DNA of 53,017 nt from Candidatus Edwardsbacteria bacterium. GTDB lineage: Bacteria > Edwardsbacteria > AC1 > JBFLXN01. Positions 1,594 to 48,647 of the stretch are shown here, piece by piece. Each line of letters begins with the position of its first letter. The stretch's first letter is position 1. The stretch spans positions 1 to 53,017 of the forward strand of contig JBFLXN010000001.1 in the NCBI GenBank assembly GCA_040755715.1. Reading direction: 5' to 3'. The translations under genes and the position numbers were made by a program. A model generated the notes under the pieces. The model searched no databases. It had not been told where the DNA came from and saw only the letters and a list, made by a program, of their open reading frames with translations.

Positions 1594-1720
1594 TTGCAAA
1601 ATGAAAATTGTAAAATGCAAATTGTAAAACTAAAAACCGTCTCCTTTCTTTCATTTTGTAATAAGCGATAAGGTATTCCTTATTTCATTTTGCATTTTGC
1701 ATTTTGCAATCTGCATTTTA
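1594..1720. repeat. operon-spacer hairpin, word AAATGCA/TTGTAAA
   Basis: Arm 1594-1631 is approximately the reverse complement of arm 1685-1720 (ATTGCAAAATG-type words). Lies between porB and the roadblock gene. Confidence 0.6.
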
Positions 1721-1726
1721 AAATTC

Positions 1727-2647
1727 TTATACAACGCACGCTAAAAGTCTCTCCCATTTAATATCTATTTCTCTCTGAATTTCCTCAAGAAAATGTGTAT
1801 TTTCCGCTAAGAAGAGGTGGCGAAATCGTTCCTGCTTTTTCAGAAACTCAATTACTGGTTTTTTCTCCTTAGGTCTGTGGGTTATACGATACTTACCATT
1901 TTCAACTTCATATATAGGCCAAATGCAAGTATCTACTGCCAATCTTCCAATTTCTATGGTGTCTTCTGGTGGATAGCCCCAACCCAAACGGCAAGGCTGA
2001 AGGATATTGATAAAAGTAGGCCCATTGAAACTCAAAGCCTTTTCTACTTTAGTGACTAAATCATTCCAGTAACTGGGACAGGCTTGAGCCGCATAAGGTG
2101 GGTCGTGAGCGGCGATTATTTCGGTCAAATCTTTTCTTGACTGTTGTTTTCCTGGAATAACGGTTCCAGCCGGACTGGTAGTAGTATGGGCTCCTTTTGG
2201 TGTAGACCCAGAACGTTGGATACCGGTGTTCATATATGCTTCATTATTGTAGCAAACATAGAGCATATTGTGCCCACGCTCAATTGCCCCGGAGAGAGCC
2301 TGAATTCCGATATCATAAGTTCCACCATCTCCACCAAAAGCAATAAATTTTATTTCCTCAGCAATCTTACCTTTTTTCTTTAAAGCTTTATAAGCCGCTT
2401 CTACACCACTGATGGTGGCGGCAGCATTTTCAAAAGCATTATGAATGAAAGGAACCTTCCAGGCAGTATAAGGAAAAATGGTGGTGACTACTTCCAGACA
2501 ACCAGTAGCACAGGCACAAACTACCGGTGTTTTCCCTGCCGCTGCCAAAATCTGACGAACAATAATTGTTGAGCCGCAGCCAGCACACGCTCTATGTCCA
2601 CCAGAAAGAAATTCACCTCTTCTGACTAATTCTCTCAAATTTGCCAT
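1727..2647 (-). CDS. porB: 2-oxoacid:ferredoxin oxidoreductase beta subunit (POR/VOR type, TPP-binding)
   Basis: 306 aa. Has CAGCGS and GGDGGTYDIG motifs. Abuts the porA stop. Confidence 0.85.
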   Translation of the reverse strand: MANLRELVRRGEFLSGGHRACAGCGSTIIVRQILAAAGKTPVVCACATGCLEVVTTIFPYTAWKVPFIHNAFENAAATISGVEAAYKALKKKGKIAEEIKFIAFGGDGGTYDIGIQALSGAIERGHNMLYVCYNNEAYMNTGIQRSGSTPKGAHTTTSPAGTVIPGKQQSRKDLTEIIAAHDPPYAAQACPSYWNDLVTKVEKALSFNGPTFINILQPCRLGWGYPPEDTIEIGRLAVDTCIWPIYEVENGKYRITHRPKEKKPVIEFLKKQERFRHLFLAENTHFLEEIQREIDIKWERLLACVV

Positions 2648-3825
2648 TATTCTCTCACTCCTAAATAGTTTACCAAAGATTCAACCTTGTTTTTTGTAAC
2701 GGTGTCCTTAAGGTCACTATAGACCTCTTTGATTTGTTCTACATTAATATCTCGTCCCCCCAGTCCATAAACATAATTTACGGTTAGAGGTCTTTGCTTT
2801 GCTTCGTAAAGTGCAGAACGGATTTCAGTAAATAGCGGTCCACCTTGAGAACTAAAGGAATCAGACCGGTCAAGCACCGCAATCACCTTCATTCGGCTAA
2901 GACTCTCGGCAATTTCCTGAGCGGCAAAGGGACGAAAGATTCTGACCTTAAAAACACCTGCCTTTAGGCCTTTTTCCCGAACCGCATCACAGGCTACTTT
3001 TGCTGTTCCGGCTGTTGAACCCAAAGCCACTATTGCCATTTCGGCGTCTTCCATTTTATATTCTTCAAAGAGCCCGTATTTCCGTCCAAATTTCTTACCA
3101 AATTCTTCTCCTACATTCAGGATTACCTTGGAAACATTTTGCATGGAATGAATCTCAGCCCGCTTATGTTCAAAATAATAATCCTGTAAATCTAAAGCAC
3201 CAACAGTGATTGGCTGTTTAATATTAAGTAAGGTATGTTTTGGTTTATACTCGCCGAGATATGTTTTTACCTCATTATCATCAAGAATTTCAATCCTTTC
3301 CATCGCATGGCTGATAATAAAACCATCAGTAGTCACCATTGCCGGCAAAAGAACTTCTGGATGCTCTGCAATTTTCACTGCCTGGATTACATTGTCATAA
3401 GCCTCTTGTGAATTCTCGGAAAATAATTGAATCCAGCCAGAATCTCTGGCACCCATTGTATCCGAGTGGTCGCAGTGAATGTTAATTGGCGAAGACAAAG
3501 CCCGGTTAACTTCGCAGAGAACAATGGGCAATCGCAAGCCTGCGGCAATATATAAGACTTCATACATCAATGCTAGTCCCTGTGAGGCAGTAGAAGTCAT
3601 CACCCTTCCCCCAGCCGATGCGGCTCCAATGCAAGCGCTCATAGCGCTGTGTTCACTTTCCGCAGGTACAAATTCAGTATCTACCAAGCCATCGGCGACA
3701 AAACTAGCGAAGAGTTGGACAACTTCGGTAGCCGGGGTAATGGGATAGGCGGCCACTACATCAGGATTTACCTGACGCATCGCTTCAGCCATAATTTCGT
3801 TTCCAGTTTTAGCTACAATCTTCAT
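2647..3825 (-). CDS. porA: 2-oxoacid:ferredoxin oxidoreductase alpha subunit
   Basis: 392 aa. N-terminus GNEIMAEA...AAYPITPATE is typical of POR/VOR alpha. Confidence 0.85.
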   Translation of the reverse strand: MKIVAKTGNEIMAEAMRQVNPDVVAAYPITPATEVVQLFASFVADGLVDTEFVPAESEHSAMSACIGAASAGGRVMTSTASQGLALMYEVLYIAAGLRLPIVLCEVNRALSSPINIHCDHSDTMGARDSGWIQLFSENSQEAYDNVIQAVKIAEHPEVLLPAMVTTDGFIISHAMERIEILDDNEVKTYLGEYKPKHTLLNIKQPITVGALDLQDYYFEHKRAEIHSMQNVSKVILNVGEEFGKKFGRKYGLFEEYKMEDAEMAIVALGSTAGTAKVACDAVREKGLKAGVFKVRIFRPFAAQEIAESLSRMKVIAVLDRSDSFSSQGGPLFTEIRSALYEAKQRPLTVNYVYGLGGRDINVEQIKEVYSDLKDTVTKNKVESLVNYLGVRE

Positions 3826-3854
3826 CTTTTTCTCCTAACTTTCTCACTTTAATT

Positions 3855-4090
3855 CTGTAACCACAGATTTGACAGATTTTCCGCCAAAGGCGGATCTGCC
3901 CCAGGCATGAAACGGATTACATCAAATAAATATCAAGAATCAAAACCATTCATCCTCCTCCGTTCCGATGGCCATCGGGACGGAAGACAAGCAATCCAAA
4001 ATTTAAAAATTTAACTTTTCTTGCTCCTTTTTTTATTCTTGATTTTGGATTTACTTAATCCGTCTAATCCGTTTAATCCGTGGTTTCGTT
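3855..4090. repeat. composite spacer: CACAGAT / AATCCG word arms plus small palindromes
   Basis: 275-nt gap between porD and porA. AACGGATTAC...ATCAAGAATCAAAA faces TTCTTGATTTTGG...TAATCCGT. Inner palindromes at 3881-3893 (CCGCCAAAGGCGG) and 3959-3984 (TCCGTTCCGATGGCCATCGGGACGGA). Confidence 0.5.
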
Positions 4091-4100
4091 TTCTTTCTTT

Positions 4101-4409: not shown

Positions 4410-4498
4410 TCCTCACCTCTTTGAAATATGGATTTTATCTGAATTTCTTTGACAGATGAAAACCCTTTATCATTTGTAATTAAAGTTGCCCCTAATAC
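4406..4498 (-). pseudogene. C-terminal remnant of a PIN-domain (VapC-like) toxin
   Basis: My own translation gives VLGATLITNDKGFSSVKEIQIKSIFQRGEE*. GATLITNDKGF matches the conserved C-terminal PIN motif (LvTnDkdF). Only ~30 codons remain. The frame overlaps the stop of the upstream antitoxin-like ORF, and its TGA overlaps the porD ATG. Confidence 0.45.
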
Positions 4499-4719
4499 AA
4501 AAGTTGTTGCAGCTCACCCCTTATTCTCCTTTGGAAACATAAAGGGTCCTCCTTTATATGTAATATTCCAACATATTCCTTTAATTTTTCCCGATGCATA
4601 ATCTTTCGACCGCATTCCAATATTTGTTCAATCTCTTTCCATTCGTCATAATTAATAATGACCTCTGATGGTCTATTGTTTTCATCTAGTACGATTTTTT
4701 TATGAATAGTCTTAATCAT
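4492..4719 (-). CDS. orphan antitoxin-like protein inside the por operon
   Basis: 75 aa. IVLDENNRPSEVIINYDEWKEIEQILE followed by LKEYVGIL...DPLCFQRRIRGE resembles antitoxins that pair with PIN toxins. Confidence 0.4.
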   Translation of the reverse strand: MIKTIHKKIVLDENNRPSEVIINYDEWKEIEQILECGRKIMHREKLKEYVGILHIKEDPLCFQRRIRGELQQLLY

Positions 4720-6135: not shown

Positions 6136-6149
6136 CAGTAATCAATTCA

Positions 6150-6319
6150 AAATGCAAATATCAAAAATCAAAATTACAAACCAAAATTCAAAATGAGCAT
6201 CTTAAAACGTCTGTCAGCAGAGTAGCCGTATAATTTTTGACGTTCAGTACACTAATAGTTTTTAAAATTTAAAAGTTTTAATATGTCATTTTGATATTTG
6301 ATATTTGATTTTTAATTTC
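6150..6319. repeat. operon-spacer hairpin, word ATATCAAA
   Basis: Arm 6150-6196 (AAATATCAAAAATCAAAAT...CAAAATGA) faces arm 6287-6319 (TCATTTTGATATTTGATATTTGATTTTT). Confidence 0.6.
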
Positions 6320-6659: not shown

Positions 6660-6793
6660 TTAGTTGTCAGATATTCTCAAATTTGACCAGAGAAACGTGA
6701 AATAATGATATGCTGATACGGTTTACGGTAATGCGGAATGAAAAAACCACTCAACATATCACCATATTAACATATCAACGCTGTATATTTTTG

Positions 6794-7725: not shown

Positions 7726-7802
7726 CCTTTTTTTAACACAGATTACACAGATTTCTTAAAGAGATTACACCGATTAAGGAAATAATCTGTATAATCTGTC
7801 TT
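7726..7802. repeat. operon-spacer hairpin, word CACAGAT; contains the 38-nt leader shared with 27192-27229
   Basis: ACACAGATTACACAGAT... faces ...ATCTGTATAATCTGT...AATCTGTG. Segment 7731-7768 equals 27192-27229 with 1 mismatch. Confidence 0.65.
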
Positions 7803-7817
7803 TTAATCTGTGCAATC

Positions 7818-9277: not shown

Positions 9278-9295
9278 TTTCCTTTGTAGGGGCGA

Positions 9296-9324
9296 CCCGG
9301 CGGGTCGCCCCTACAAAAAAAGAA
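9296..9324. repeat. REP palindrome (GTAG type)
   Basis: GTAGGGGCGACCCGGCGGGTCGCCCCTAC, 29 nt, about 19 nt upstream of the RAYT start codon. Confidence 0.85.
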
Positions 9325-14031: not shown

Positions 14032-14061
14032 ATTTTCCCTTTACAAATGAACACACTAATA

Positions 14062-14201
14062 GGTTGATACGGTGATACGATGATATGTTAATAAATTCGC
14101 CTCTGGCGGCGGATTTCGAGATTCGGATTTTTCTCAATGCGATATTCGAATTTCAGATTTATTTCCTTATCAGCATATCAACATATAACCATATCAACAA
14201 C
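14062..14201. repeat. operon-spacer hairpin, word GATAYG/ATATCA, with inner GATTTCG words
   Basis: Arm 14062-14094 matches the reverse complement of 14167-14201 at about 25 of 32 positions. A CCGCC..GGCGG palindrome and GATTTCGAGATTCGG words lie inside. Confidence 0.6.
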
Positions 14202-14223
14202 AAGTGAGTATCTATTTTTAGGT

Positions 14224-17785: not shown

Positions 17786-17814
17786 ATTATACATAAATGG
17801 TATGCATTTGTCAA
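17786..17814 (-). promoter_or_regulatory. consensus sigma70 promoter for vapBC, internal to the array
   Basis: Minus strand reads TTGACA (17814-17809), 17 nt, TATAAT (17791-17786), about 38 nt upstream of the vapB ATG. Confidence 0.6.
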
Positions 17815-20277: not shown

Positions 20278-20310
20278 GGTTACCTCCTATTGTTAAAAAG
20301 GCAAAGATTA

Positions 20311-20427
20311 AAATTGAGGTTAAGGTTTAGAGAAGGAAGTAAAAGTCAATGTGCTAGATGGAGAATTTTACGGATTAAACGGAGAAACACCAGATTTTTC
20401 TTAACCTTAACCTCAACCTTAACCTTA
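20311..20427. repeat. operon-spacer hairpin, word GGTTAAG
   Basis: ATTGAGGTTAAGGTT (left) faces AACCTTAACCTCAACCTTAACC (right), with a 14-nt perfect core. Confidence 0.65.
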
Positions 20428-20445
20428 TCTTTTTTCTAGCTGTAT

Positions 20446-22121: not shown

Positions 22122-22145
22122 AGTTTCCTCCCTTGTTAACAGTAG

Positions 22146-22195
22146 ACAGAAGGCAGAAAGCAGTAAGCAAGCTGCTTTCTGCTTTCTGCTTTCTG
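22146..22195. repeat. operon-spacer hairpin, word GCAGAAAG
   Basis: CAGAAGGCAGAAAGCAG, loop TAAGCAAG, then CTGCTTTCTGC(TTTCTGC)CTTCTG. The stem is essentially perfect, with one extra 7-nt word on the right arm. Confidence 0.8.
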
Positions 22196-22215
22196 CCTTC
22201 TGCTTTTTTCTCCTT

Positions 22216-24935: not shown

Positions 24936-25010
24936 GTTTTTTCCTACACAGATTGGCACAGATAAAATGCCGCAAGATTATTACAGATATTGTCGGAAAA
25001 ATCTGTGCCC
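24936..25010. repeat. operon-spacer hairpin, word CACAGAT
   Basis: CAGATTGGCACAGATAAAAT faces AAAATCTGTGCCCATCTG. Confidence 0.55.
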
Positions 25011-25053
25011 ATCTGCGAAGTCTTTTATTTGTGGTTATCTGTGAGAGAATGCA

Positions 25054-25793: not shown

Positions 25794-25891
25794 TGATTAC
25801 GGCGATAAAATCACTAACCGCTATCCGTCAACCGCTTACCGCTAAACAATATGCGCATAGCGAAAAGCGATGTTTTTATATCGCCGTCATC
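25794..25891. repeat. operon-spacer hairpin, word CCGCTA/GGCGATA
   Basis: GATTACGGCGATAAAATCA faces TGTTTTTATATCGCCGTCATC. Inner ACCGCT words. Confidence 0.55.
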
Positions 25892-27184: not shown

Positions 27185-27320
27185 GATAGATGATTACACA
27201 GATTTCTTAAAGAGATTACACAGATTAAGCAGGATAAAATCGCTTGGGTTCAATTTTACACACAGGATATTGCTTCATTCTACAAATTCGCCCAGATAAA
27301 ATCTGTGTCTGTCTTTTTCG
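27185..27320. repeat. operon spacer with CACAGAT words; contains the 38-nt leader shared with 7731-7768
   Basis: GATTACACAGATTTCTTAAAGAGATTACACAGATTAAG at 27192-27229. AAATCTGTGTCTGTC occurs at about 27299. Confidence 0.6.
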
Positions 27321-28680: not shown

Positions 28681-29067
28681 TTGTTTGCTCTATTAAACAT
28701 ATTTTTAGAATTTTGTTTAGTGAGGACATTGAATTTGACGCCCCTACACTTGCCGATGGAACCACAGATTTCGCGGATTTCCGCCTATGGCGGAAATCCG
28801 TGATTAAAAAATTATTGAGTAGAGTAGGAGATGGTATTACTACCATCCTCCCCTGCTTCAAACCGAACATCCAGATTTCCCGTATTCGGCTTCCCGAAGG
28901 AATTGACAGGTCGCCTGCCCGTCTTTAGCCACCTTTGGTTCACTTTCGTTTCGGGCTGGGAGTTTGTCTTGTTCCCTCCAGATTTCGCCTCACGGCGAAC
29001 ACCCTGAACTTGACTACAGAGCCTCCCTAAGTCAAAGAGTCTGACCCGACTTTAACGGGCAAGCCAG

Positions 29068-29145: not shown

Positions 29146-29204
29146 TCTCTCTCCTTTTGGATCTACGCCTTATGCCTTGCACTTTACGCTTTACGCCTCA
29201 AGCT

Positions 29205-30629
29205 TTACGCTTCAAGCGTCCAGCGTTTAGCACTTTTTATAACATTTCCCTTCTCATCAAGGTAAATAGTCTTAATTTTATTCTCCTGTTCATCGTATTC
29301 AAAACGCACCGTGGCAAAATGCAAATCCTTGCGATTCTTCAGTTGTCCATTTTTGTCGTAATAACTCTCCTCAATCTTTTTTCCCTGCTCGTCATATTTG
29401 TAACGAACACTGGCAGCTCCCAAATATTTGTGTTCTTTTAACTTCTCATCCTTGCTGTAATAACTCACTTCCGCCATATTTCCTTCTTCATTGTATCTGT
29501 AACGCAGAATGGCGAAGCCAAAATCGTTACGCTCTTTCAATTGCCCATCAGCGCCGTAATAACTTTCCTCAATCTTATTTCTTTGCTCATCATATTTCCA
29601 GCGATAGATGGCGAAGCCCTCTATGTCTTCTATCAATTTCTCACTGGCACTATAATAGCTTTCCTCAGTCATATTTCCTTGGTCATTGTATTTGTAATGG
29701 ACAATGGGAATGAAGGATATGAATTTCCTATTCTTTCCGTAGTAAGCTATCTCAATTCTATTCCCCTTACTATCATATTTAGAACATACAGCGGCGACCC
29801 TCCAATCTTCACGCTCTTTTAGTTGGCCATCGGTTCCGTAATAACTTTCTTCAGTCACGTTTCCTTGCTCGTCATATTTCCAGCGCCAAATAGCAATACC
29901 AGCCTTGTTTTCTTTCAATTTCTCTTTGGCATCGTAGAGGCTTTCTTCAATCAGATTCTTCTGGTCATCGTATTTATAACGCTCGATGGCAATGCCTGAG
30001 ATCAATTTTGGACCCTTGCCGTAGAGAGCTATATCAATCATGTTTTCTTGTTCATCATATTTCCAGCGTATTTCGTGTCGCCCATATTTGTCCACAATTC
30101 GCTCTCCATTCTTATTAAGCCTAATAGACTTGATTCGGTTACCATTTTCGTCTACAGTCCAGACATATTGAGCAACACCCATATCGTCCTCTGTCAGTTC
30201 ACCATTTCTATCATAGTTGAGCAATGCAATGGGAACACTCTCTTTATTCAGTTTAAGCCCCTGGCAATAAACCCCAAAGCCAGAATTTGTCATCGGATTA
30301 CCCTTCACATCAAAGTAGTGTCTTTTTTCGTAACCCTCGGGATATTCTATCTTGATTTGAGCCACTTCAAAGATAGGGTCGTAACTCAGTTTACCCCGTT
30401 TCAAGTATTCTACTCTAACCAATCTGCCGTTTTCGTTACATACAAGATGATAGCAATCAACCTTGTTGGCGACCTCTTCTGTTATGGGATAGCGACCGAT
30501 AATCTGCCATTTACCGTCCCAAGCAGGCGATGTGATTCGCCGATAATAGATGTCTGTCTCTTTGCCCCATCCGGCAGCAGCCATTAGACTATACAATGCA
30601 AATATCAAGCAGACCGCAATTCTTTTCAT
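29205..30629 (-). CDS. secreted YD/RHS-like repeat protein
   Basis: Preferred start is MKRIAVCLIFALYSLMAAAG (signal peptide). About 10 units of ~31 aa of the form W(R/K)YDEQGN.IEESYY..DG.LKE resemble YD repeats. No toxin tip recognised. Confidence 0.6.
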   Translation of the reverse strand: MKRIAVCLIFALYSLMAAAGWGKETDIYYRRITSPAWDGKWQIIGRYPITEEVANKVDCYHLVCNENGRLVRVEYLKRGKLSYDPIFEVAQIKIEYPEGYEKRHYFDVKGNPMTNSGFGVYCQGLKLNKESVPIALLNYDRNGELTEDDMGVAQYVWTVDENGNRIKSIRLNKNGERIVDKYGRHEIRWKYDEQENMIDIALYGKGPKLISGIAIERYKYDDQKNLIEESLYDAKEKLKENKAGIAIWRWKYDEQGNVTEESYYGTDGQLKEREDWRVAAVCSKYDSKGNRIEIAYYGKNRKFISFIPIVHYKYNDQGNMTEESYYSASEKLIEDIEGFAIYRWKYDEQRNKIEESYYGADGQLKERNDFGFAILRYRYNEEGNMAEVSYYSKDEKLKEHKYLGAASVRYKYDEQGKKIEESYYDKNGQLKNRKDLHFATVRFEYDEQENKIKTIYLDEKGNVIKSAKRWTLEA

Positions 30630-30778
30630 AACTCCACTCTTGTTTATTCTTTCACATTTTTTCGTCTCTAAAGAGGCGGAGCCCCAATTATGCATAGCAC
30701 GACACATGGGGAGGGCCTTTGATGGCGTTTGTGCTATTCTCCCTATCCCGCATCAGCGGGACCTCCGCCTCATATTTT

Positions 30779-33705: not shown

Positions 33706-33765
33706 TGATTCCTCCCATTATTACATTGTTTGTTAAAACATTGTGAAGCAATCGTCAAACGATAG

Positions 33766-34134
33766 TCAAGCAGTTGTGAAACGACCGATGGATTTAATGT
33801 AATTGTTGAGTTTAACTTTCAGATTTATATAATCCTTAATAAACTTATCATATTCTTCTCCCGTGATATACTTACGCTTCAAGCTAAATAACATAAAGTG
33901 CTTCGTTTCTGTAAGAGAACCGCGTGCCTGACGACAAAACTGCTGGTTTTCTTTATAGTGAAACCGCCCATACCCTTCGGCAATATTTGCCCCTATTGAT
34001 GTACCCGCTCGTCTCAACTGGGAAACAACATTATATTTTTCTTCCTCAGGAAATCTCGAAGTAATATCATAAATCCGGTCTGCCAATTCTATTGATAATT
34101 TATACACCTCTAAGTCATCAAAATCCTTAATCAT
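33766..34134 (-). CDS. four-helix-bundle protein (23S rRNA intervening-sequence protein family)
   Basis: 122 aa. YKLSIELADRIY..T..FP.EEKY.VVSQLRRAGTSIGANIAEGYGR is the family signature. Confidence 0.8.
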   Translation of the reverse strand: MIKDFDDLEVYKLSIELADRIYDITSRFPEEEKYNVVSQLRRAGTSIGANIAEGYGRFHYKENQQFCRQARGSLTETKHFMLFSLKRKYITGEEYDKFIKDYINLKVKLNNYIKSIGRFTTA

Positions 34135-34194
34135 TACTCCTCCTATTGCTTGACCATCGCTTGACTATTGTTTGACTACTCCCCACTCATCGCC

Positions 34195-35496: not shown

Positions 35497-35527
35497 TTTT
35501 TTCTCCTTGAATACAAGATAATCAGAA

Positions 35528-35625
35528 GGAATCGTAGGAAACGCAGGAACCGAAGGAAACGTATGAAACGTCAGAACCCCTGTTTCTCTCCCACACGATT
35601 CCTCCGTTTCCTACGTCTCCTACGG
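35528..35625. repeat. operon-spacer hairpin, word GGAAACG
   Basis: CGTAGGAAACGCAGGAACCG faces CGATTCCTCCGTTTCCTACG, about 18 of 20 complementary. Confidence 0.7.
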
Positions 35626-35631
35626 CTTTAA

Positions 35632-36798: not shown

Positions 36799-36856
36799 CT
36801 ACGCTTTACACTCTACGCTTGATGCGTTCAGTGTGTAGCGTATAGCGCTCAGCGCG
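36799..36856. repeat. operon-spacer hairpin, word TACGCTT
   Basis: TACGCTTTACAC faces GTGTGTAGCGTA. Further AGCGCT words are present. Confidence 0.5.
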
Positions 36857-38033: not shown

Positions 38034-38062
38034 AGATATCTCCTCCTAATACGCTTTACGCC

Positions 38063-38533
38063 TCACGCTTCCCGCTTTTGGCATGGGGTGTCTTTGTTAA
38101 CTCTTTCTATCGTTTTCTTGTCTTCAATTAACTCTATTAAGACACCCAAGGTAGTTTCGGGTTTAAAGAAGACAACTCGTTTACCTTCACTACCCATCCG
38201 TGGTGTATCAATCGTTTGTATCCCATTTTGAGCTAACTGAGATAATACGGTATCTAAATTTTTTACTCCAAAACAAATATGGTGAAGTCCGGGGCCTCTC
38301 TTTCTAATAAATCGGGCAATGACACTATCTTCCTTTAATGATTCCAAAAGTTCAATCTTTATCCCTTTCAAATCAAAGAGAGCCAGACGAATTCCTCGCT
38401 CTGGCAATGTTACTATCTTATATTTCCCCAGGGTAAAGACTTCACCATAAAGTTTTGTAGCCATCTCTAAATTCTCTACCGCAATGCCGATATGGTCAAA
38501 TTTAGAAAACAACTTTTTCTTTGTACTCACCAA
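38063..38533 (-). CDS. mce: methylmalonyl-CoA epimerase (VOC family)
   Basis: 156 aa. [12 protein letters not shown]...[10 protein letters not shown] matches the epimerase pattern. Overlaps the mutase gene. The last codons run into TACGCTT-type words. Confidence 0.8.
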
Positions 38534-40860: not shown

Positions 40861-40995
40861 AGTAGTGAGTAGTAAGTAGAAAGTATTGAGTTAATTGAGT
40901 TTGTTGAGTTTTTGGGTTCATTGGGTTTTAACAACCCGATAAACTCAATAAACTGAGTAAACCCAATAAACCTATTTCTCCTCGTTACTATTTTA
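40861..40995. repeat. operon-spacer hairpin, words ATTGAGT / AGTAGTGAGT
   Basis: TATTGAGTTAATTGAGTTTGTTGAGTTTTTGGGTTCATTGGGTT faces AACCCGATAAACTCAATAAACTGAGTAAACCCAATAAACC. Outer arms are AGTAGTGAGTAGTAAG / CTCGTTACTAT. Confidence 0.65.
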
Positions 40996-41003
40996 TGTAT
41001 TGT

Positions 41004-42494
41004 TCACCTTCTCAGCATCATCCATCGGCTAACCTTTTTCCAATTGCTCATTGTTTCTTTACTTTCTTTTATAATTGGTGATTCTTCCTCTTTAAGTGCG
41101 ATGATTGCCGCCGCCATTGCCGCTATCTCTTCGTTTTGCTCTTTTGGTAGAGGCGTATCAAGTATCTTTTGCAAAAAACCTGTATCAAAATTGCCTCCTA
41201 AGAAGTCCCTATGGGAAAGAATCCGTTTGTGAAAGGGGATGGTAGTCTTTATTCCTTTTATTTTATATTCACTCAATGCCCTCTGCATTCGCACAATTGC
41301 TTCCTGCCTGTCCCTGCCCCAGGCAAGAACCTTGGCTATGAGTGGGTCATAGAAGAGTGGAATCTCATACCCTTCAAAGATTCCACTCTCCACTCTTATC
41401 CCAGGACCGGTAGGGTCTACAATTTCCTCAATCCTTCCGGTAGAAGGGAAGAAGTTATTGTCCGGATCTTCAGCAGAAATTCGGCATTCAATGGCAGCCC
41501 CACGGAGCCAGACCTCTTCCTGTTTTAGTCTGAGTTTTTCGCCACTGGCAATATGAATTTGTTCCTTTACAATATCTATTCCAGTAACCAATTCTGTGAC
41601 AGGATGTTCAACCTGAAGACGGGTATTGACCTCCAGAAAATAGAAGTTTTTATTTTTATCCACAAGAAATTCTACTGTTCCGGCATTTGTATATCCTGCG
41701 GTCTTTGCCACCTTCTTTGCAGACTCTCCCATCTTTCTTCTCAAATCTTCTGTCATAATACAGCAGGGAGATTCTTCTATCATCTTCTGATAGCGTCTCT
41801 GGATGGAACATTCTCTTTCATTGAGATGAACCACCTTACCGAAGTTATCAGCCAAGACTTGAATTTCCACATGTCTTGGATGGAGAAGATATTTCTCTAT
41901 ATATACTGCTGGATTTCCAAAGGCGGAGGAAGCTTCAGCAATTGCACCTTTAAGTGCGCTCTGCAGTCCACTTTTATTTTCCACCATGCGCATTCCCTTC
42001 CCCCCCCCACCGCCGGCTGCCTTTATGAGAATGGGAAATCCTATCTTTTCTGCTATTTTCTTTGCTTCTTCTTCATTTCTTAGAGGTTTTTCCATCCCGG
42101 GAATAATGGGAATGCCTGCCTTAGACATAGTCTGTCTCGCCGCTGTTTTATCCCCTAAGAGTGCCATGGCTTTACTGGTAGGACCGATAAACATTATTCC
42201 GGCACCCTCTACCGCTTTGGCAAAATTCTCGTTCTCTGCTAAAAATCCATATCCTGGGTGAATTGCTTCTGCCTTTGACTTCTTTGCTACATCAAGAATT
42301 TTGTCTATCCTGAGATAACTCTCGGTAGAAGGAGAAGGACCTATGAAATAGGCTTCATCAGCATATCTTGTATGAGGTGCACTCCTATCTGCTTCGGAAA
42401 AGACAGCGACAGAGAGAATATTCAGTTCCCTGCAGGCGCGCATCACCCGCAAGGCAATTTCCCCCCGATTAGCGATGAGAATTTTTTTAAACAT
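41004..42494 (-). CDS. biotin carboxylase subunit (propionyl-CoA carboxylase-type set)
   Basis: Preferred start is MFKKILIANRGEIA, with GGAGAAG 6 nt upstream. GGGGKGMR and the ATP-grasp pattern are present. Confidence 0.9.
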   Translation of the reverse strand: MFKKILIANRGEIALRVMRACRELNILSVAVFSEADRSAPHTRYADEAYFIGPSPSTESYLRIDKILDVAKKSKAEAIHPGYGFLAENENFAKAVEGAGIMFIGPTSKAMALLGDKTAARQTMSKAGIPIIPGMEKPLRNEEEAKKIAEKIGFPILIKAAGGGGGKGMRMVENKSGLQSALKGAIAEASSAFGNPAVYIEKYLLHPRHVEIQVLADNFGKVVHLNERECSIQRRYQKMIEESPCCIMTEDLRRKMGESAKKVAKTAGYTNAGTVEFLVDKNKNFYFLEVNTRLQVEHPVTELVTGIDIVKEQIHIASGEKLRLKQEEVWLRGAAIECRISAEDPDNNFFPSTGRIEEIVDPTGPGIRVESGIFEGYEIPLFYDPLIAKVLAWGRDRQEAIVRMQRALSEYKIKGIKTTIPFHKRILSHRDFLGGNFDTGFLQKILDTPLPKEQNEEIAAMAAAIIALKEEESPIIKESKETMSNWKKVSRWMMLRR

Positions 42495-42554
42495 AATTTT
42501 TTCTTCTCCACCTTTTTCCTCTCCCATCAAAGAGGAGGAGTTTTTGGTGTAAGA

Positions 42555-42920
42555 TTATTCTTTCTGGGCGAGGATAATCCCGTTTTCGTTAATCCTTTTG
42601 AAAAATGAATTTTCCCCTGCCTTTACAACTTCTTCAATGGTAAAAGGGAAAACATCAACAGGTAAACCGACAGAAAGAAAATAAAGCAGATATTGGGGTA
42701 TTCGGTCCATTCTTCTTCTCTTATCGTTGGCAAGAATAATTAATAAATCAATATCACTATGAGGCGAATAGTTGCTATTTGATAGAGAACCGAAAAGGAC
42801 AATCTTTAAAACATTTTTATCTTGGGAAATCAACTCTCGGGCAATCTTTGACAACTTAGTCAAAACCTCTTCTCTATTTAGGGAGTAAACTTTCACAGTA
42901 TTTGATAATTTCGCTTGCAT
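42555..42920 (-). CDS. minimal nucleotidyltransferase (HEPN/MNT module 2)
   Basis: 121 aa. VLFGSLSNSNYSPHSDIDLLI is the GS...D.D motif. Confidence 0.75.
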   Translation of the reverse strand: MQAKLSNTVKVYSLNREEVLTKLSKIARELISQDKNVLKIVLFGSLSNSNYSPHSDIDLLIILANDKRRRMDRIPQYLLYFLSVGLPVDVFPFTIEEVVKAGENSFFKRINENGIILAQKE

Positions 42921-43260
42921 TTTTTATCGCCTCCTCGGCATCGTTTTTAAAAAAATATTCTTTTGGTGTACCAGTTTCAAAACTATTTGCATACCTAGTG
43001 GGAATATAAAATCTATCCAATCTAGCGCCCTTTTCTATCAAATCTTCAGGCACATCTGTGGCGAGATTTTTTAAGAGACTACTTACCGAATGTCCCCAGG
43101 CTTCCATATTACGAAATAAATATAGGGCTTTTACTGCTTTTTCTGCCGATTGTTGCGCACTAAAGCATGCCCACTCATAAAACTTTTCTTCCGTATCCTT
43201 CTGTGCATGTGCTAAATCTCTTTTTGCTTGTTCTAACCAATCAACCCACCGGCTAGCCAT
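42874..43260 (-). CDS. HEPN domain protein (module 2)
   Basis: 128 aa. AKRDL..A, then FSAQQSAEKAVKALY, then GHS. The gene order is opposite to module 1. Confidence 0.75.
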   Translation of the reverse strand: MASRWVDWLEQAKRDLAHAQKDTEEKFYEWACFSAQQSAEKAVKALYLFRNMEAWGHSVSSLLKNLATDVPEDLIEKGARLDRFYIPTRYANSFETGTPKEYFFKNDAEEAIKNASEIIKYCESLLPK

Positions 43261-44354: not shown

Positions 44355-44744
44355 TTAAATGGCAACCTGCCTTACTCTATACTTTGTTTCTGATATTATC
44401 ACCAAAGACCTGTTGTGTTCTATGTTTTTGAAACCTGGACTTCCTATGAACTCTCTCAGAATTTCAATTGCATGTTCCACTGTAGGGGGCTTGATTCTCA
44501 AGACCCATACACCGAAACTGCCCTTGCCTGAGCGATAATACAACTCTCCAAAATCCAAATCAAAGGTCAGAATGACAAACCCTTTCCCCTTGGCAATATC
44601 AACCACTTTTCTATCCGGCAGACCCACGGAAAACTCTGTAGTTCTTTTGGCATCAAATCCAACTTCCTTCAAAAAACTAATAATTTTAGGACTAATGTTT
44701 TCATTGCCTAAAATCTTGAGTTCAGACAAGGCCCACCTCTTCAT
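44355..44744 (-). CDS. DUF5615-like (Mut7-C/PIN-like) putative toxin
   Basis: 129 aa. Lies downstream of and overlaps a DUF433 gene. ILTFDLDFGEL is typical of this family as I recall it. Confidence 0.55.
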   Translation of the reverse strand: MKRWALSELKILGNENISPKIISFLKEVGFDAKRTTEFSVGLPDRKVVDIAKGKGFVILTFDLDFGELYYRSGKGSFGVWVLRIKPPTVEHAIEILREFIGSPGFKNIEHNRSLVIISETKYRVRQVAI

Positions 44745-44949
44745 ATTGAGTTACCTGAGAAGCATACCATATTGCCGCCAAAACATCCTCTCTCTGCAAT
44801 TCTGGATAGTCATCAATTATCTCTTCCGCTGAACAGCCGGATGACAAAAGTTCCAGTATCAAGTAAACCGGAATTCTTGTGCCACGAATTACAGGTTTAC
44901 CAAGCATAATATTTGGGTCAACTACTATTCTTTCATTGGGGGTTGACAT
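44722..44949 (-). CDS. DUF433 domain protein (putative antitoxin)
   Basis: 75 aa. IVVDPNIMLGKPVIRGTRIPV..ILE.L..G.S.EEI..DYP.L..EDV.AA is the DUF433 signature. Confidence 0.7.
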   Translation of the reverse strand: MSTPNERIVVDPNIMLGKPVIRGTRIPVYLILELLSSGCSAEEIIDDYPELQREDVLAAIWYASQVTQYEEVGLV

Positions 44950-44977
44950 ATTTTTTTCTCCTCTTTGTATTTAACAG

Positions 44978-45216
44978 GACTTTGTTAAAATTTTGTCTAA
45001 AATTGGCACGAAAATCAACACTGACAAGCGTTTAAGCCTTCTTGGCTTGTTCTTCTCTTGTCCCCCGACAAGTCGGGGGAAGAAAGACAGCCCAAGCCCC
45101 GATAAATCGGGGCTTCAGGGCGTCCTGAAAAGCACAAGAAAAGCGCATTCACAGGCTTATATTATTGTGCCAGAAGGCTTTCAGGCAGATTTTGAGCCAA
45201 AATTTAACAAAGCACT
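44978..45216 (-). mobile_element. MITE-like element, copy B (~239 nt, inverted relative to copy A)
   Basis: Reverse complement aligns end to end with 23277-23538. Same TIRs and internal palindromes. Confidence 0.75.
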
Positions 45217-45280
45217 GTTTAAGTTCCGTAGTCTCCTGCGAGTCTGCCTTAGGCAGACGATCCTGCGTTTCCTGCGTTTT

Positions 45281-46831: not shown

Positions 46832-47646
46832 AATGGTTTCTCCAAATCTTTACTACACACTATTCCTATTTTGAGGTCGTGTTCAAAGATTAATAGCCAT
46901 TCTTCTTCCTTTGCTTTCTTAAGTAATTCCTTCTTTTTCCCCATTGTCACAAGCGGATAGAGGTCGTAGCCCATCACAAAAGGAATCTTCAGGTGTGAGG
47001 TTGTAGGAATTAAATCACCAAAGTATATAGCCGTCTTTTCTCCGTCCTGAATTAAAATACTCTGATGTCCCTCAGTATGTCCTCCGGTAACCAAAGTCTT
47101 TATCCCCGGCACTATCTCTATATCTCCCTCAATTAATTCTAATTGTTTAAACTCTAACAAGGGAAGAAAATTCTCTGCAAGATAACTTGCCTTTGTCCTC
47201 TCATTGGGTGAAATAGCGTCTTCCCATTCTTTTTTTTGAATAAAATACTTTGCTTTTGGAAATGTTGGCACAATTTTGCCGTCTTCTGTCCTTATGGTAT
47301 TCCCACCGCAGTGGTCAAAATGCAGATGTGTATTTATGACAATGTCAATATTGTTTGGCGACACTCCAATCTTTTTGAGTGAAGAAATTAGTGTATCTTT
47401 TTTGTCAATTCCATATATCTCGGCAATTTTTTTGCTGAACTTATCTCCTATCCCTGTATCAATCAATATTTTTTTGCCCTTTGTTTCAATCAAGAGACAG
47501 TTCAGTCCCAATTCAATTCTATTCTTTTCATCAGGTGTGCTAAGTCTCTCCCAGATAACCTTAGGGACGACGCCAAACATCGCCCCTCCATCAAGAGCAA
47601 ATTTTCCATCACTCAAAAGAAAAATTTCCATACTTCTGAATTTCAC
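46828..47646 (-). CDS. MBL-fold metallo-hydrolase
   Basis: 272 aa with [10 protein letters not shown] (HxHxDH). Has a 4-nt overlap with the PCC-beta start. Confidence 0.75.
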
Positions 47647-47678
47647 TTTTAATTTCCCTTCAAAGGCTTGCTAAAAAA

Positions 47679-47737
47679 AGTTCATAGTTCATGGTTCGTA
47701 GTTCATACCATCAACTATAAACTATGAACTATCAACT
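47679..47737. repeat. operon-spacer hairpin, word GTTCATA
   Basis: Arm 47679-47706 matches the reverse complement of 47710-47737 at 23 of 28 positions, with a 3-nt loop. The right arm overlaps the stop of the B12-subunit gene. Confidence 0.75.
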
Positions 47738-48133
47738 GTGTTTCTTCACTGTTTTCTGGATAAAGTTGACTATTTCCGTAGTGGGTGTACCTGGGCCAAA
47801 AAGTTGTTTCACCCCCATTTTTTTTAGCGCCCTTATGTCTTCCTCAGGAATTATCCCCCCCCCTGTAAGTGTAATTCCAGTTGCCTTCTTTTCTTTTAAG
47901 AGTTTAAGGATTTTAGGAAAGACTGTCATATGGGCACCAGAAAGGATGCTTACTCCTATTACCTCCACATCTTCTTGAATTGCTGTTTCTACAATCATTT
48001 CTGGTGTTTGATGCAGACCGGTATAAATAACTTCCATTCCTGCATCTCTCAGGGCCCTGGCTACGACTTTTGCTCCCCGGTCATGCCCATCAAGTCCAGG
48101 TTTAGCGATTAAAACACGAATCTTTCTCTCCAT
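47732..48133 (-). CDS. B12-binding small subunit of an acyl-CoA mutase
   Basis: 133 aa. [20 protein letters not shown] carries the DxHxxG base-off/His-on motif, and GGG.IP is present. Confidence 0.85.
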
Positions 48134-48159
48134 AATGCCTCCGATAGACGCTTCACGCC

Positions 48160-48555
48160 TTACGCTTCACGCTTCACGCTCGAGGCTTGACGTCTCTGGC
48201 GTTTAACACTAAGCGCATTTCTAAATTTTCTAGTTTTTGCTTCAATTTTATCACAAAATTCACAGATATCTTTAACTACAATGTTTTCAAGAAATCCCAG
48301 CCTCTCACATACTTTCATACAGGCAATTATTTCAACAAGTGACTTAAGAGAAATCCCAAGAAATCTTCTGAATTCGGCATCGCTGTCCGAAGCTCTTCCT
48401 TCTGCGATATTTAAAGATACAGAGACAGCGACTCTTTTGAGTTGACTTGACAAGCCAAATTTTTCATCTTCTGGGAGTTTTGCTGTAATTTTGTATATCT
48501 TTTCCACAAGATCCAATGACAATTGCCATATCTCTAATTTTTCAAAAGGATACAT
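48160..48555 (-). CDS. four-helix-bundle protein (23S rRNA intervening-sequence protein family)
   Basis: 131 aa. [44 protein letters not shown]. The C-terminal tail SSVKREA is encoded by ACGCTTC words. Confidence 0.8.
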
Positions 48556-48647
48556 TCAATCCTCCTTTTAGGCACGTTTTACGCCTTACGCTCGGTGCCT
48601 GGCGTTCAGCGTCAAGCGTCAGGCATTTAGCGTTTAGCGTCCAGCAT

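Follow-up and report, generated by a model that had tools for sequence, protein, structure and literature searches.

Hairpins of tandem short words in operon spacers of Candidatus Edwardsbacteria: probable miniatures of IVS-type cassettes

Intervening sequence (IVS)-type cassettes are best known from 23S rRNA genes, and the protein family encoded in these intervening sequences is the four-helix-bundle family TIGR02436. For 23S rRNA intervening sequences of this architecture, cleavage by RNase III was shown experimentally (PMC4990558). In Coxiella, GACAGAT heptamers are located at the RNase III site of the IVS, and strains have two or three of them (PMC4990558). Paired inverted heptamer arrays were described in Xanthomonas (PMC4692102) and, according to the passage of that paper citing Mrazek 2007, many bacteria contain heptamer repeats in excess.

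The hairpins analyzed here have the design of the two ends of small selfish gene cassettes of the type found as 23S rRNA intervening sequences. Their arms correspond to the ends of cassettes encoding four-helix-bundle or GxxExxY proteins, so that the design does belong to a described class, contrary to the first-pass annotation; they are also similar to the Xanthomonas arrays and to the cyanobacterial STRR heptamers. A full cassette consists of a tandem array of 7-11-nt words, a Shine-Dalgarno site, a small ORF and the reverse-complement array, in this order. The encoded protein is of the four-helix-bundle type (TIGR02436, Avd-like) or of the GxxExxY type (TIGR04256).

Word hairpins and cassettes of the window

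The window, i.e. the whole stretch of 53,017 nt analyzed, contains about 14 ORF-less word hairpins and two ORF-bearing cassettes among about 35 spacers of at least 44 nt; a hairpin in almost every spacer, as assumed before, was an overstatement. The hairpins are long and imperfect, consist of tandem words of 7-9 nt and separate co-transcribed genes. Inverted-repeat z values compare the best score per spacer with 100 dinucleotide shuffles.

1593..1724, minus strand: ORF-less word hairpin (spacer 1563), words AAAATGC / GCATTTT, between an MglB-like gene and the POR beta-subunit gene; inverted-repeat z 9.3, fold z -3.07, TRF arrays 1593-1629 and 1686-1719
3855..4085, minus strand: composite spacer with a small CACAGAT/GACAGAT hairpin (3855-3900) and a long hairpin (3905-4085) with words ACGGATTA / TAATCCGT, three copies at 4056-4081 (TRF array, period 9), and a REP-like hairpin nested in the loop; fold z -5.05
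6144..6318, minus strand: ORF-less word hairpin (spacer 6136), words ATATCAAA / TTTGATAT, between ybaB and recR; inverted-repeat z 6.7, I3 arms of 43 nt 79% complementary, fold z -3.9
6692..6779, minus strand: weaker word hairpin, 8-nt words GATATGCT / CATATCAA, same family as hairpin 14032-14223 (I22 80% complementary to 14165-14189); fold z -2.5 to -2.8, not significant in the ungapped inverted-repeat test
7736..7817, minus strand: ORF-less word hairpin (spacer 7718), words CACAGATTA / TAATCTGTG, between PTA and IlvE-like genes; fold z -6.8, inverted-repeat z 5.1, TRF arrays 7736-7753 and 7782-7799
14042..14220, minus strand: ORF-less word hairpin (spacer 14032), 8-nt words TGATACGG / CATATCAA, between biotin carboxylase (BC) and BCCP; fold z -5.2, inverted-repeat z 4.3, 58/85 pairs Watson-Crick
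20295..20435, minus strand: ORF-less word hairpin (spacer 20278), words GGTTAAG / CTTAACC, between an OB-fold gene and an M55 peptidase gene; fold z -5.2, inverted-repeat z 3.7, I4 arms of 40 nt 80% complementary
22139..22203, minus strand: ORF-less word hairpin (spacer 22122), words CAGAAAG / CTTTCTG, between HMG-CoA synthase (HMGCS) and thiolase; fold z -6.4, inverted-repeat z 10.5, one arm longer than the other by one word
24947..25043, minus strand: ORF-less word hairpin of the CACAGAT family (spacer 24914), between biotin ligase and cob(I)alamin adenosyltransferase; inverted-repeat z 7.9, fold z -2.4
25795..25891, minus strand: degenerate word hairpin (spacer 25786), words ACCGCTA / TAGCG; inverted-repeat z 4.0, fold z -3.4
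27188..27320, minus strand: decayed or interrupted CACAGAT-family member, about 40 nt in common with 7736-7790 as read from the sequence; neither the inverted-repeat nor the fold test significant
28755..28806, minus strand: small CACAGAT/CGCGGAT hairpin, by its sequence homologous to hairpin 3855-3900
29164..29226, minus strand: TACGCTT array (TRF period 7, 7 copies; family D7 member) plus short hairpin, overlapping the stop codon of an RHS-repeat gene; inverted-repeat z 6.2
33706..34194, minus strand: complete IVS-type cassette, four-helix-bundle ORF 33766-34134 between inverted 11-nt words (TAGTCAAGCAA / complement); 5' arm (mRNA sense) 34143-34178, 3' arm 33743-33765
35520..35628, minus strand: ORF-less word hairpin (spacer 35497), 9-nt words AGGAAACGT / ACGTTTCCT, between alanine dehydrogenase and acetyl-CoA hydrolase/transferase; fold z -6.7, inverted-repeat z 9.3, TRF arrays 35527-35571 and 35600-35624
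36800..36842, minus strand: ORF-less word hairpin of the TACGCTT family (spacer 36781; family D7 member); inverted-repeat z 3.8, fold z -2.4
38046..38077, minus strand: direct TACGCTT array without inverted partner, spanning the stop codon of the methylmalonyl-CoA epimerase gene
40861..40990, minus strand: ORF-less word hairpin (spacer 40841), word types AGTAGTG and TTGAGTT, between a second biotin carboxylase and its BCCP; inverted-repeat z 10.2, fold z -4.1 to -5.3
45261..45279, minus strand: solo direct word array, TCCTGCGTT, two copies
47673..47743, minus strand: ORF-less word hairpin (spacer 47647), words TAGTTCA / TGAACTA, with the stop codon of the B12-binding subunit gene within the first word; inverted-repeat z 10.7, fold z -3.8 to -4.3
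48134..48650, minus strand: complete IVS-type cassette, four-helix-bundle ORF 48160-48555, TACGCTT-type arrays 48148-48180 and 48575-48650
51506..51529, minus strand: solo direct word array, ACGAATTGC, 2.8 copies

When the transcribed (minus) strand was folded as RNA, 14 spacers gave structures much more stable than those of shuffled controls (z -2.4 to -6.8), whereas size-matched coding controls (n = 40) had a mean z of -0.23 (sd 1.25). All 12 spacers named in that annotation contain the hairpins it described, with inverted-repeat z values from 3.7 (spacer 20278) to 10.7 (spacer 47647). In the shuffle test, no significant inverted repeat was found in spacers 20836, 30708, 32873 and 43261, nor in spacer 27168, although CACAGAT words are present in the latter. 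Several long “spacers” contain small ORFs, REP-like elements, a MITE or a group II intron fragment.

The composition of the arms from tandem words was confirmed. A custom detector found 24 tandem arrays in the window compared to 0-5 in shuffles, and six strictly paired arrays compared to none; tandem 6-9-nt arrays are about 10 times commoner in the window than in shuffles, and paired arrays with a period of 6-9 were also detected by TRF. Non-coding DNA, about 13% of the window, contains or borders 22 of the 24 arrays. The recurrence of words was confirmed: CACAGAT occurs 20 times on both strands (5.1 expected) with clusters at 3.86, 7.7, 24.9, 27.2 and 28.8 kb, and TACGCTT eight times (3.8 expected), at 29.2, 36.8, 38.05 and 48.16 kb. 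The word at 6.2-6.8 and 14.1 kb, previously given as GATATCA, is ATATCAA.

The ORFs of both complete cassettes belong to TIGR02436 (cut-off 24 bits), with 110 bits for ORF 33766-34134 and 100 bits for ORF 48160-48555. For cassette 33706..34194, a closing stem of 19 bp was obtained in both MFE and centroid folds, and its words were found again in the homologues L082, L084 and L085. Cassette 48134..48650 sits between the catalytic and B12-binding subunits of methylmalonyl-CoA mutase (MCM), the gene downstream being identified by TIGR00640; in its MFE and centroid folds, a long-range stem (about 45 bp) closes around both Shine-Dalgarno site and ORF. The spacer pairs 33706-33765/34135-34194 and 48134-48159/48556-48647, the arms of these ORF-containing cassettes, had been missed before.

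Cassette design, mobility and gain in other genomes

Complementary flanks at z ≥ 4 were found for 48 of 72 metagenomic four-helix-bundle genes (67%) compared to 6 of 354 control small ORFs (1.7%), and 50 of the 72 have a tandem array in a flank. Neighbouring genes in the four-helix-bundle survey were co-directional in 97 of 106 cases. For copies on Nostoc plasmids, the flanking arrays are (TCAGGAG)n/(CTCCTGA)n and (GGGAAAA)n/(TTTTCCC)n, and the GxxExxY genes of L001, Bacteroides and Bernardetia have CACGGAT or CACAGAG arrays in their flanks; the word CAC[A/G]GA[T/G] is conserved across phyla.

ORF-less hairpins and cassettes are related. The words of hairpin 22122 form the arms of four-helix-bundle cassettes in L141 and L158, those of hairpin 40841 in L135 and L161, and the word type of hairpin 20278 in L147. 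Within the window, TACGCTT words are present in both a cassette and ORF-less hairpins. Homology between an ORF-less hairpin and cassette arms is seen in the Zixibacteria relative L011, where the hairpin has about 80% identity with each arm of a cassette 1.3 kb away. Remnants of four-helix-bundle genes were not found in the loops of ORF-less hairpins.

One cassette occurs in unrelated contexts: L137 and L159 have about 500 nt in common, comprising array, ORF and array, with 99-100% identity and unrelated flanks. Target-site duplications were not found, nor was an associated transposase or recombinase. Whole words are gained and lost: exactly one 7-nt word separates L143 from L116, and L094 differs from L107 in both arms by two 8-nt words (16 nt). 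These differences, together with the two or three GACAGAT heptamers of Coxiella strains, support replication slippage, as proposed earlier, as the process by which the arms change.

At the junctions where the window has hairpins, most relatives have gaps of 6-15 nt; median gaps are 14.5 and 6 nt in relatives compared to 94 and 125 nt in the window. The HMG-CoA synthase/thiolase junction (hairpin 22139..22203) is a 9-15-nt gap in most relatives, and the relatives' junction sequence is TAG-GAGG-N5-ATG. The window hairpins are therefore lineage-specific inserts. The genome, represented by these 53 kb, lacks close relatives, thiolase identity reaching 78-80% at best.

Stem pairing and alternative explanations

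The inserts extend from the stop codon to just ahead of a free Shine-Dalgarno site, which is unpaired in 11 of 11 folds. The arms are polar relative to transcription: on the sense strand, the 5' arm is much richer in G than in C in 39 of 42 cassettes (p = 6e-9), and 11 of the 14 window hairpins show this bias as well. Among stem mismatches on the sense strand, G·U was not in excess over A·C in 43 cassettes (90 vs. 95), nor significantly so in the window (45 vs. 34). As this preference is lacking, selection for RNA pairing is not demonstrated.

The first-pass annotation implied a host-evolved regulatory RNA, with each junction independently gaining a stem as RNase III site, stabiliser or insulator and the words being a by-product of stem lengthening. 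This would agree with the highly significant stems, the Shine-Dalgarno site being always free, the polar arms, the separation of genes needing differential or coupled expression, and the presence of a hairpin with different words at the same junction in both BC/BCCP paralogue pairs. It is nevertheless unlikely, because the same junctions have short gaps without hairpins in most relatives, a G·U excess is missing, the cassette moves as a unit, and unrelated junctions and unrelated organisms share identical word families, which invariably go together with two specific ORF families. Alternatively, slippage together with intrastrand template switching might produce palindromic microsatellites from short native hairpins or stop-proximal sequence, with neither an element nor a function involved. 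In hairpin 22122, the word is similar to the ancestral 3'-terminal codons of the gene upstream (GCAGAATGA), hence this array could have grown in place, and spacer 35497 repeats part of the 3' end of its upstream gene; whole-word indels between near-identical copies, the symmetry of G·U and A·C mismatches and the general abundance of heptamers mentioned above point in the same direction. Such a neutral origin is improbable given the strong and specific association with four-helix-bundle genes, the words conserved across phyla, the significance of the arm polarity and the identity of array, ORF and array in unrelated contexts.

Intrinsic terminators or attenuators would also be stable intergenic stems. 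However, the stems are not followed by U-tracts, A-rich mRNA tracts lie beside the stem in hairpins inspected by eye, consensus-like terminator sites are not enriched in the window (16 vs. 16.6 expected), and the hairpins separate subunits of single enzymes (MCM large/B12-binding, BC/BCCP) as well as HMGCS and thiolase. For these reasons a role in termination, already doubted before, is very improbable. Imperfect palindromes between same-strand genes could likewise be integron attC sites, which separate gene cassettes, or REP/REPIN elements, which a RAYT transposase mobilises, and REP-like elements do occur in the window. Yet the attC cores are almost lacking (GTTRRRY in 0 of 12 hairpins, RYYYAAC once, internally, in one hairpin), the surrounding genes are conserved syntenic operons and not cassettes, the hairpins have no common consensus whereas the window REPs have GTAGGGGCGACCC, and the window contains neither an integrase nor a RAYT gene. 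An assignment to either type is hardly credible.

Word hairpins as inserts in operons

The word hairpins are probably miniature forms of an IVS-type selfish cassette which colonises operon spacers, MITE-like and devoid of the ORF. Besides 23S rRNA genes, such cassettes occupy gaps between co-directional genes, reaching from the stop codon upstream to a point just ahead of the Shine-Dalgarno site downstream. The words, some of them conserved across phyla, may not be mere pairing partners but may be recognised by whatever spreads or maintains the element. The inserts would be transcribed through within the operon mRNA, and their RNA would fold into imperfect stems of 25-45 bp, leaving the ribosome-binding site free. 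By analogy to rRNA IVS stems and to the intercistronic sites of phage T7, where RNase III cuts, processing of the operon hairpins by this enzyme is plausible; alternatively, the stems may simply be tolerated. The polycistronic transcript would be split or insulated in this way.

Word hairpins in the operon spacers

Nearly all genes of the window lie on the minus strand, and the gene content is that of acyl-CoA and amino-acid catabolism. The genes comprise:

pyruvate:ferredoxin oxidoreductase subunits
YbaB and RecR
HMG-CoA synthase (HMGCS), thiolase and an OB-fold protein
two sets of biotin carboxylase (BC), BCCP and carboxyltransferase
two methylmalonyl-CoA mutases
others

Read on the plus strand, every spacer opens with CCTCC, which is the Shine-Dalgarno (SD) sequence belonging to its left-hand gene. 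The first-pass annotation had described the spacers as word hairpins, i.e. imperfect hairpins with arms consisting of inverted tandem arrays of a short word. The spacers named there fold better than controls on the transcribed strand (RNA z -2.4 to -6.8; mean of 40 size-matched coding segments -0.23, sd 1.25), and their inverted symmetry holds under alignment, with z of 3.7 to 10.7 for 12 named spacers in an independent inverted-repeat test. The degenerate palindrome often fills the whole spacer almost to its centre; spacer 14032-14223 has 85 aligned pairs, 58 of which are Watson-Crick. The tandem nature of the arms was recovered with TRF, which gives paired arrays of period 6-9. A periodicity detector found 24 arrays compared to 0-5 in ten dinucleotide shuffles, and six strictly paired arrays compared to none. 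The array detector relying on exact 6-mers was too strict and the pairing detector relying on the TRF consensus is conservative. All but two of the 24 arrays fall within, or border on, the non-coding ~13% of the window; the periods of the 24 are 7 nt (11 arrays), 9 nt (8), 8 nt (4) and 6 nt (1). They show the features by which STRRs or long simple-sequence repeats are recognized: a tandem unit of 5-11 nt, typically 7 nt, concentrated in intergenic DNA. The noted recurrence of words is likewise present, as CACAGAT occurs 20 times (5.1 expected) and TACGCTT 8 times (3.8 expected).

Word hairpins are real and abundant. The statement that almost every spacer contains one was too strong: about 14 ORF-less word hairpins, plus two spacer pairs which form the arms of cassettes, were counted among ~35 spacers of at least 44 nt. 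Spacers 20836, 30708, 32873 and 43261 (named, like the hairpins below, by start coordinate) gave nothing significant in the fold and inverted-repeat tests, and spacer 27168 contains CACAGAT words and no significant inverted repeat. Further spacers are occupied by REP-like elements, by small ORFs of toxin-antitoxin type, by a MITE of 265 nt or by a probable group II intron fragment. The following additional elements were recorded:

539-832, small-ORF module
4492-4719, small-ORF module
17076-17748, small-ORF module
32110-32872, small-ORF module
42555-43260, small-ORF module
44355-44949, small-ORF module
9286-9314, GTAGGGGCGACCCNNNGGGTCGCCCCTAC REP-type palindrome
13508-13536, GTAGGGGCGACCCNNNGGGTCGCCCCTAC REP-type palindrome
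13763-13791, GTAGGGGCGACCCNNNGGGTCGCCCCTAC REP-type palindrome
23263-23541 and 44975-45230, a MITE-like element (~265 nt) present twice in inverted orientation, with 92% identity between the copies
28819-28999, minus strand, matches to Rfam group II intron models RF00029 (42.8 bits) and RF02001 (36.8 bits)
17786-17814, minus strand, perfect sigma-70 consensus (TTGACA, 17 nt, TATAAT; 12/12)
29279-30068, at least six tandem coding repeats of 96-99 nt within the RHS-repeat gene 29205-30707

The small-ORF modules, all located between metabolic genes, comprise gene pairs of toxin-antitoxin type (with a PIN domain or an MntA-like nucleotidyltransferase) as well as further short ORFs, so that the operons are colonized by several kinds of small selfish modules besides the hairpins. 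Two of the three GTAGGGGCGACCCNNNGGGTCGCCCCTAC palindromes are inside the predicted BCCP-like ORF 13483-14031 and would therefore be translated. The MITE-like element is bounded by inverted repeats of ~27 nt (CTTTGTTAAATTTTGGCTCAAAAT...) and contains two hairpins of REP type, CCCCGATTTATCGGGG and CCCCCGACTTGTCGGGGG; when the JGI metagenome collection was scanned with 22 nt of this element, no match was obtained. The region 28819-28999 is probably an intron fragment in a 524-nt spacer, and no reverse-transcriptase ORF was found near it. The sigma-70 consensus is upstream of a carboxyltransferase gene in a spacer without word hairpin.

In mRNA sense, the hairpins begin 0-22 nt past the upstream stop codon, or overlap it, and end about 8-36 nt (mostly 17-36 nt) ahead of the next start codon. 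GGAGG is unpaired in 11 of 11 folds. All copies are located between protein-coding genes, none of them in helix 25 or 45 of a 23S rRNA, and no rRNA is present within the window.

Several known element types were compared and rejected. Intrinsic (Rho-independent) terminators do not fit, as no U-tract follows the stems on the transcribed strand, in agreement with the first-pass annotation, and terminator-like consensus sites are not enriched. For integron attC sites, GTTRRRY was found in 0 of 12 hairpins tested and RYYYAAC gave one internal match, in the 40841 hairpin. REP/REPIN elements were excluded since the word hairpins have no common consensus; the true REPs of the window (GTAGGGGCGACCC...) form a separate family. 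At the gathering score, no Rfam family matches the word hairpins, the only matches in the window being those at 28819-28999.

Some genes of the window are paralogous. The biotin carboxylase genes 14224-15738 and 41004-42530 and the BCCP genes 13483-14031 and 40325-40840 are offset by 26,777 nt with ~71-73% DNA identity, and both BC/BCCP junctions contain a word hairpin, with unrelated words. The methylmalonyl-CoA mutase paralogues 38502-40061 and 48648-50330 are offset by 10,143 nt.

Cassettes with an ORF and their proposed ORF-less relatives

A profile search of all ORFs detected two four-helix-bundle genes in the window, matching NCBIfam TIGR02436 (cut-off 24 bits):

33766-34134, four-helix-bundle gene of the first cassette, 110 bits
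48160-48555, four-helix-bundle gene of the second cassette, 100 bits

The spacers flanking both genes are the two arms of a cassette, an element of the intervening sequence (IVS) type in which a word array is followed by an SD site, a small ORF (four-helix-bundle or GxxExxY) and the reverse-complement array. The arms are TAGTCAAG-type 11-mers and their complement in the first cassette and TACGCTT-type heptamers and their complement in the second, which separates the catalytic subunit of methylmalonyl-CoA mutase from the B12-binding subunit. In both, the terminal inverted repeats pair into a long-range stem which closes around SD site and ORF in MFE and centroid folds; this predicted fold has the architecture of a 23S rRNA IVS. 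An ORF of the TIGR02436 or GxxExxY type is present in the two cassettes and absent from the 14 ORF-less hairpins. With cassettes of IVS architecture and TIGR02436 ORFs in the same window, the hairpins, formerly assigned to no described class, are regarded as a variant of a known element type rather than a new class.

At 38063-38077, 48160-48180, 47732-47743 and 29205-29226, a word array extends across the stop codon of the upstream gene and thereby codes for the C-terminal residues of its protein, for instance the ...SVKREA tail of a four-helix-bundle protein. Many words contain a stop codon themselves (TAGTTGA, AAGCGTAA, GGTTAAG).

The generality of the design was examined by a metagenome scan with the window four-helix-bundle protein, which yielded 80 loci with 72 testable genes. 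Complementary 5' and 3' flanks reached z ≥ 4 for 48 of the 72 genes and z ≥ 3 for 56, compared to z ≥ 4 for 6 of 354 small ORFs used as controls. A tandem array was present in the flank of 50 of the 72 genes, mostly of period 7 or 8 (cassette arrays of 7 nt, 49; of 8 nt, 35), and 97 of 106 neighbouring genes are co-directional. Homologues in plasmid records are almost all cyanobacterial (Nostoc, Calothrix), and the gene is located between inverted heptamer arrays in two of four records examined. Both genera are classical organisms of STRR heptamers. The annotated GxxExxY genes of Bacteroides finegoldii and Bernardetia have CACAGAG arrays on both sides, and one Treponema GxxExxY gene has single CACGGATTCG copies on both sides. 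Words of the CACAGAT type are not used by the 72 sampled four-helix-bundle cassettes and accompany GxxExxY genes and the Coxiella IVS. Taking together the CACAGAG and CACGGAT arrays of GxxExxY genes and GACAGAT of Coxiella, CAC(A/G)GA(T/G) is common to IVS-type cassettes of several phyla; it is also the word of the largest hairpin family of the window. The literature searched contains no account of inverted tandem-word arrays flanking four-helix-bundle or GxxExxY genes outside rRNA. In two CRISPR surveys, 23S_rRNA_IVP genes are named as array- or cas-associated, and such an association would be expected of these cassettes.

To compare junctions, 80 loci of other phyla encoding the same thiolase at 68-78% identity were used. 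The median gap from HMGCS to thiolase is 14.5 nt in these loci versus 94 nt in the window, and from thiolase to the OB-fold gene 6 nt versus 125 nt. The usual junction of the relatives is packed as TAG-GAGG-N5-ATG (stop, SD, start), and by this comparison the window hairpins are lineage-specific inserts. The few relatives whose gap is large proved decisive: it is filled by a GxxExxY gene in L001 (Candidatus Zhuqueibacter; TIGR04256, 1e-38) and by a four-helix-bundle gene in L011 (Zixibacteria; TIGR02436); the same gap of loci L002 and L009 holds ORFs homologous to the latter (jackhmmer). Inverted tandem-word arrays (CACGGAT/ATCCGTG and TCGAAGC/GCTTCGA) bracket the gap gene in L001, L002 and L011, and L009 has kept the upstream array alone. 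The genome has no close relative; the best thiolase identity, with GTDB species representatives and 5.8 billion proteins covered, is 78-80%. A single further contig was found, in Logan run SRR29635779, and its sequence does not differ from the window (100% identity).

The ORF-less hairpins appear, from shared arm sequences, to be derivatives or relatives of the cassettes. In L011, an ORF-less hairpin in the thiolase/OB-fold gap matches both arms, 5' and 3', of the four-helix-bundle cassette 1.3 kb upstream at ~80% identity, and window hairpins share words with cassettes; in both cases the hairpins correspond, as in MITEs, to the termini of a larger ORF-bearing element. The TACGCTT family of the window includes one cassette and three ORF-less sites. 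Hairpins 6660 and 14032 share arms, hairpins 1563 and 6136 share words, and four word families are dispersed with 2-5 sites each within 53 kb. Apparently private words are not always so: in unrelated metagenomes, four-helix-bundle cassettes have arms built from the words of three such hairpins, namely CAGAAAG (again preceded by A6), TTGAGTAG and GGTTAAG. A search of the hairpin loops for remnants of four-helix-bundle ORFs found none. No target-site duplication was recognizable by eye, only an SD-like motif flanking hairpin 22122 on both sides.

An alternative is that the arrays grew in place from local sequence, as suggested by hairpins 22122, 47647 and 35497. Comparison of 22204-22260 with loci L005, L008, L010 and L015 gives TAG-GAGG-N5-ATG as the ancestral HMGCS/thiolase junction. 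In the window, an SD-like AAGGAG is located just past the HMGCS stop codon and a second motif, GGGAGG, beyond the hairpin, and the array word CAGAAAG is similar to the conserved last HMGCS codons GCAGAATGA. The AAGGAG motif and this similarity could reflect either an insertion guided by microhomology or growth in place. Growth in place is weakened, however, because the cassette of L141 carries CAGAAAG arms with the same A6 prefix.

Differences between related cassettes were also recorded. The same array-ORF-array block occurs in L137 and L159 with 99-100% identity between unrelated flanks. A single 7-nt word separates L143 from L116, and the difference between L094 and L107 is 16 nt in each arm. 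In L137, a direct repeat of ~60 nt (~1360-1420 and ~1890-1950; unit ...TTTTTTGAGGAA.AAAG..AATGATTT.AAT....GTCGGTCTCAGAGACCC) brackets the cassette outside the word arrays and may be a target or recombination site. The contigs L106 and L108 have a four-helix-bundle cassette without a single difference (100% identity) between a nuoF- and a nuoG-like gene, whereas the flanking nuoG coding sequence has clearly diverged (~92% identity over the compared flanks); this points to a recent event, transfer or conversion, that was confined to the cassette.

Comparison with known elements

Short IVSs without ORF are known from Salmonella; thus, an ORF is not obligatory for an IVS. Like 23S rRNA IVSs, the elements described here are inserts in a transcribed region in sense orientation, their inverted-repeat termini would pair into a stem around the insert, the ORF family (TIGR02436) is the same, and forms with and without ORF exist. 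Unlike them, the window elements are hosted by protein-coding operon junctions, between stop codon and SD, instead of rRNA helices 25 or 45, the majority of copies lack an ORF, and many word families occur in one genome. In addition, 23S rRNA IVSs are cut by RNase III, and for the window elements such a cleavage is predicted.

REP/BIME, ERIC and the Neisseria Correia elements are palindromic, MITE-like intergenic elements in operons, and phage T7 early mRNA has intercistronic RNase III sites. As with the window hairpins, these are transcribed imperfect palindromes between co-transcribed genes. Their role in stabilizing or processing segments of the mRNA is also the function proposed for the window hairpins. 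In contrast to the latter, REP/BIME, ERIC and Correia elements have a conserved consensus and lack arms made of tandem words; REPs rely on RAYT transposases, and the T7 sites are not repetitive elements.

The STRR heptanucleotide repeats of heterocystous cyanobacteria, attributed to Mazel and colleagues (1990), are reported to be direct arrays in which a small number of words is used throughout the genome. They resemble the window arrays in having tandem 7-nt words confined to intergenic DNA, and Nostoc plasmid arrays of STRR type flank four-helix-bundle genes in inverted orientation. Unlike the window elements, STRRs are not tied to a cassette or to hairpins in the literature searched. For long simple-sequence repeats, Mrazek 2007 is referred to as cited in PMC4692102.

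In 23S rRNA IVSs of Coxiella, Leptospira and Brucella, the four-helix-bundle ORF is S23p, and a homologue which is not part of an IVS exists in Xanthomonas (PMC4990558). The Coxiella IVS contains GACAGAT tandem heptamers with a copy number varying among strains, and its RNase III site is located at the first repeat (PMC4990558). Xanthomonas genomes have 70-75 pairs of convergent GGGAATC heptamer arrays each, which are intergenic, near the end of the upstream ORF, mostly between co-directional genes, transcribed, and of varying length among species (PMC4692102). These arrays are similar to the window hairpins in being paired and inverted, intergenic, transcribed and near the upstream ORF end, but they use one G-rich word genome-wide, which is read as G-quadruplex-forming, and have no reported link to a cassette (PMC4692102). 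TAACTGA direct repeats show a patchy distribution across phyla (Beggiatoaceae, cyanobacteria, Bacteroidetes; PMC4679880). They, too, are intergenic tandem heptamers, oriented to the downstream gene, with stop codons in the word, but are almost only direct (1 of 170 inverted), consist of a single word and end beside the start codon (PMC4679880).

Level of action and interpretation

Selection at the RNA level was tested through wobble mismatches on the sense strand, with a negative outcome in cassettes (A·C 95 versus G·U 90, 43 cassettes) and in window hairpins (34 versus 45); selection for RNA pairing is not visible in the stems. The lack of a G·U excess fits arms which are inverted as element termini, or which are homogenized at DNA level. 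A polarity test pointed in a different direction. The first-transcribed arm contains far more G than C (651 versus 246; 39 of 42 cassettes, p 6e-9), and 11 of 14 ORF-less window hairpins have the same G-first polarity relative to their host genes; orientation relative to transcription therefore matters. A speculative explanation of the polarity invokes Rho, for which an arm rich in C and poor in G would offer a loading site if it emerged first.

The best reading of the hairpins is that of miniature IVS-type elements colonizing stop-to-SD gaps. By analogy to rRNA IVSs and the intercistronic sites of phage T7, RNase III would be expected to cleave them. A more far-reaching proposal, which we consider rather unlikely, is that the words do more than build stems and are iterated recognition sites of an unrecognized mobile-element system whose proteins spread or maintain the cassettes, with the ORF-less hairpins as its MITEs. 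The proteins would be the Avd-like four-helix-bundle or the PD-(D/E)XK-like GxxExxY proteins, and the cassettes would home to transcribed but non-translated gaps, namely stop-to-SD gaps of operons and rRNA helices. If true, one mechanism would account for three old puzzles, namely the origin of rRNA intervening sequences, the cyanobacterial STRRs and Xanthomonas heptamers, and the repeated 'CRISPR association' of 23S_rRNA_IVP genes.

The analysis joins subjects which have been described separately, i.e. 23S rRNA IVSs, STRR or long simple-sequence repeats, and the abundant four-helix-bundle and GxxExxY families without assigned function. It suggests that IVSs, STRR-type repeats and both gene families are facets of one element type colonizing transcribed spacers. 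This predicts that RNase III cuts the stems, that the encoded proteins bind the word arrays and that strains show presence/absence polymorphism. Such arrays can pass for CRISPR-like repeats, inflate intergenic length in metagenome-assembled genomes and contribute stop codons as well as C-terminal tails to adjacent genes. Provided that the window is typical, the genome would contain in the order of a thousand such hairpins and would be a strong natural system for asking how long intercistronic stems affect operon mRNAs.
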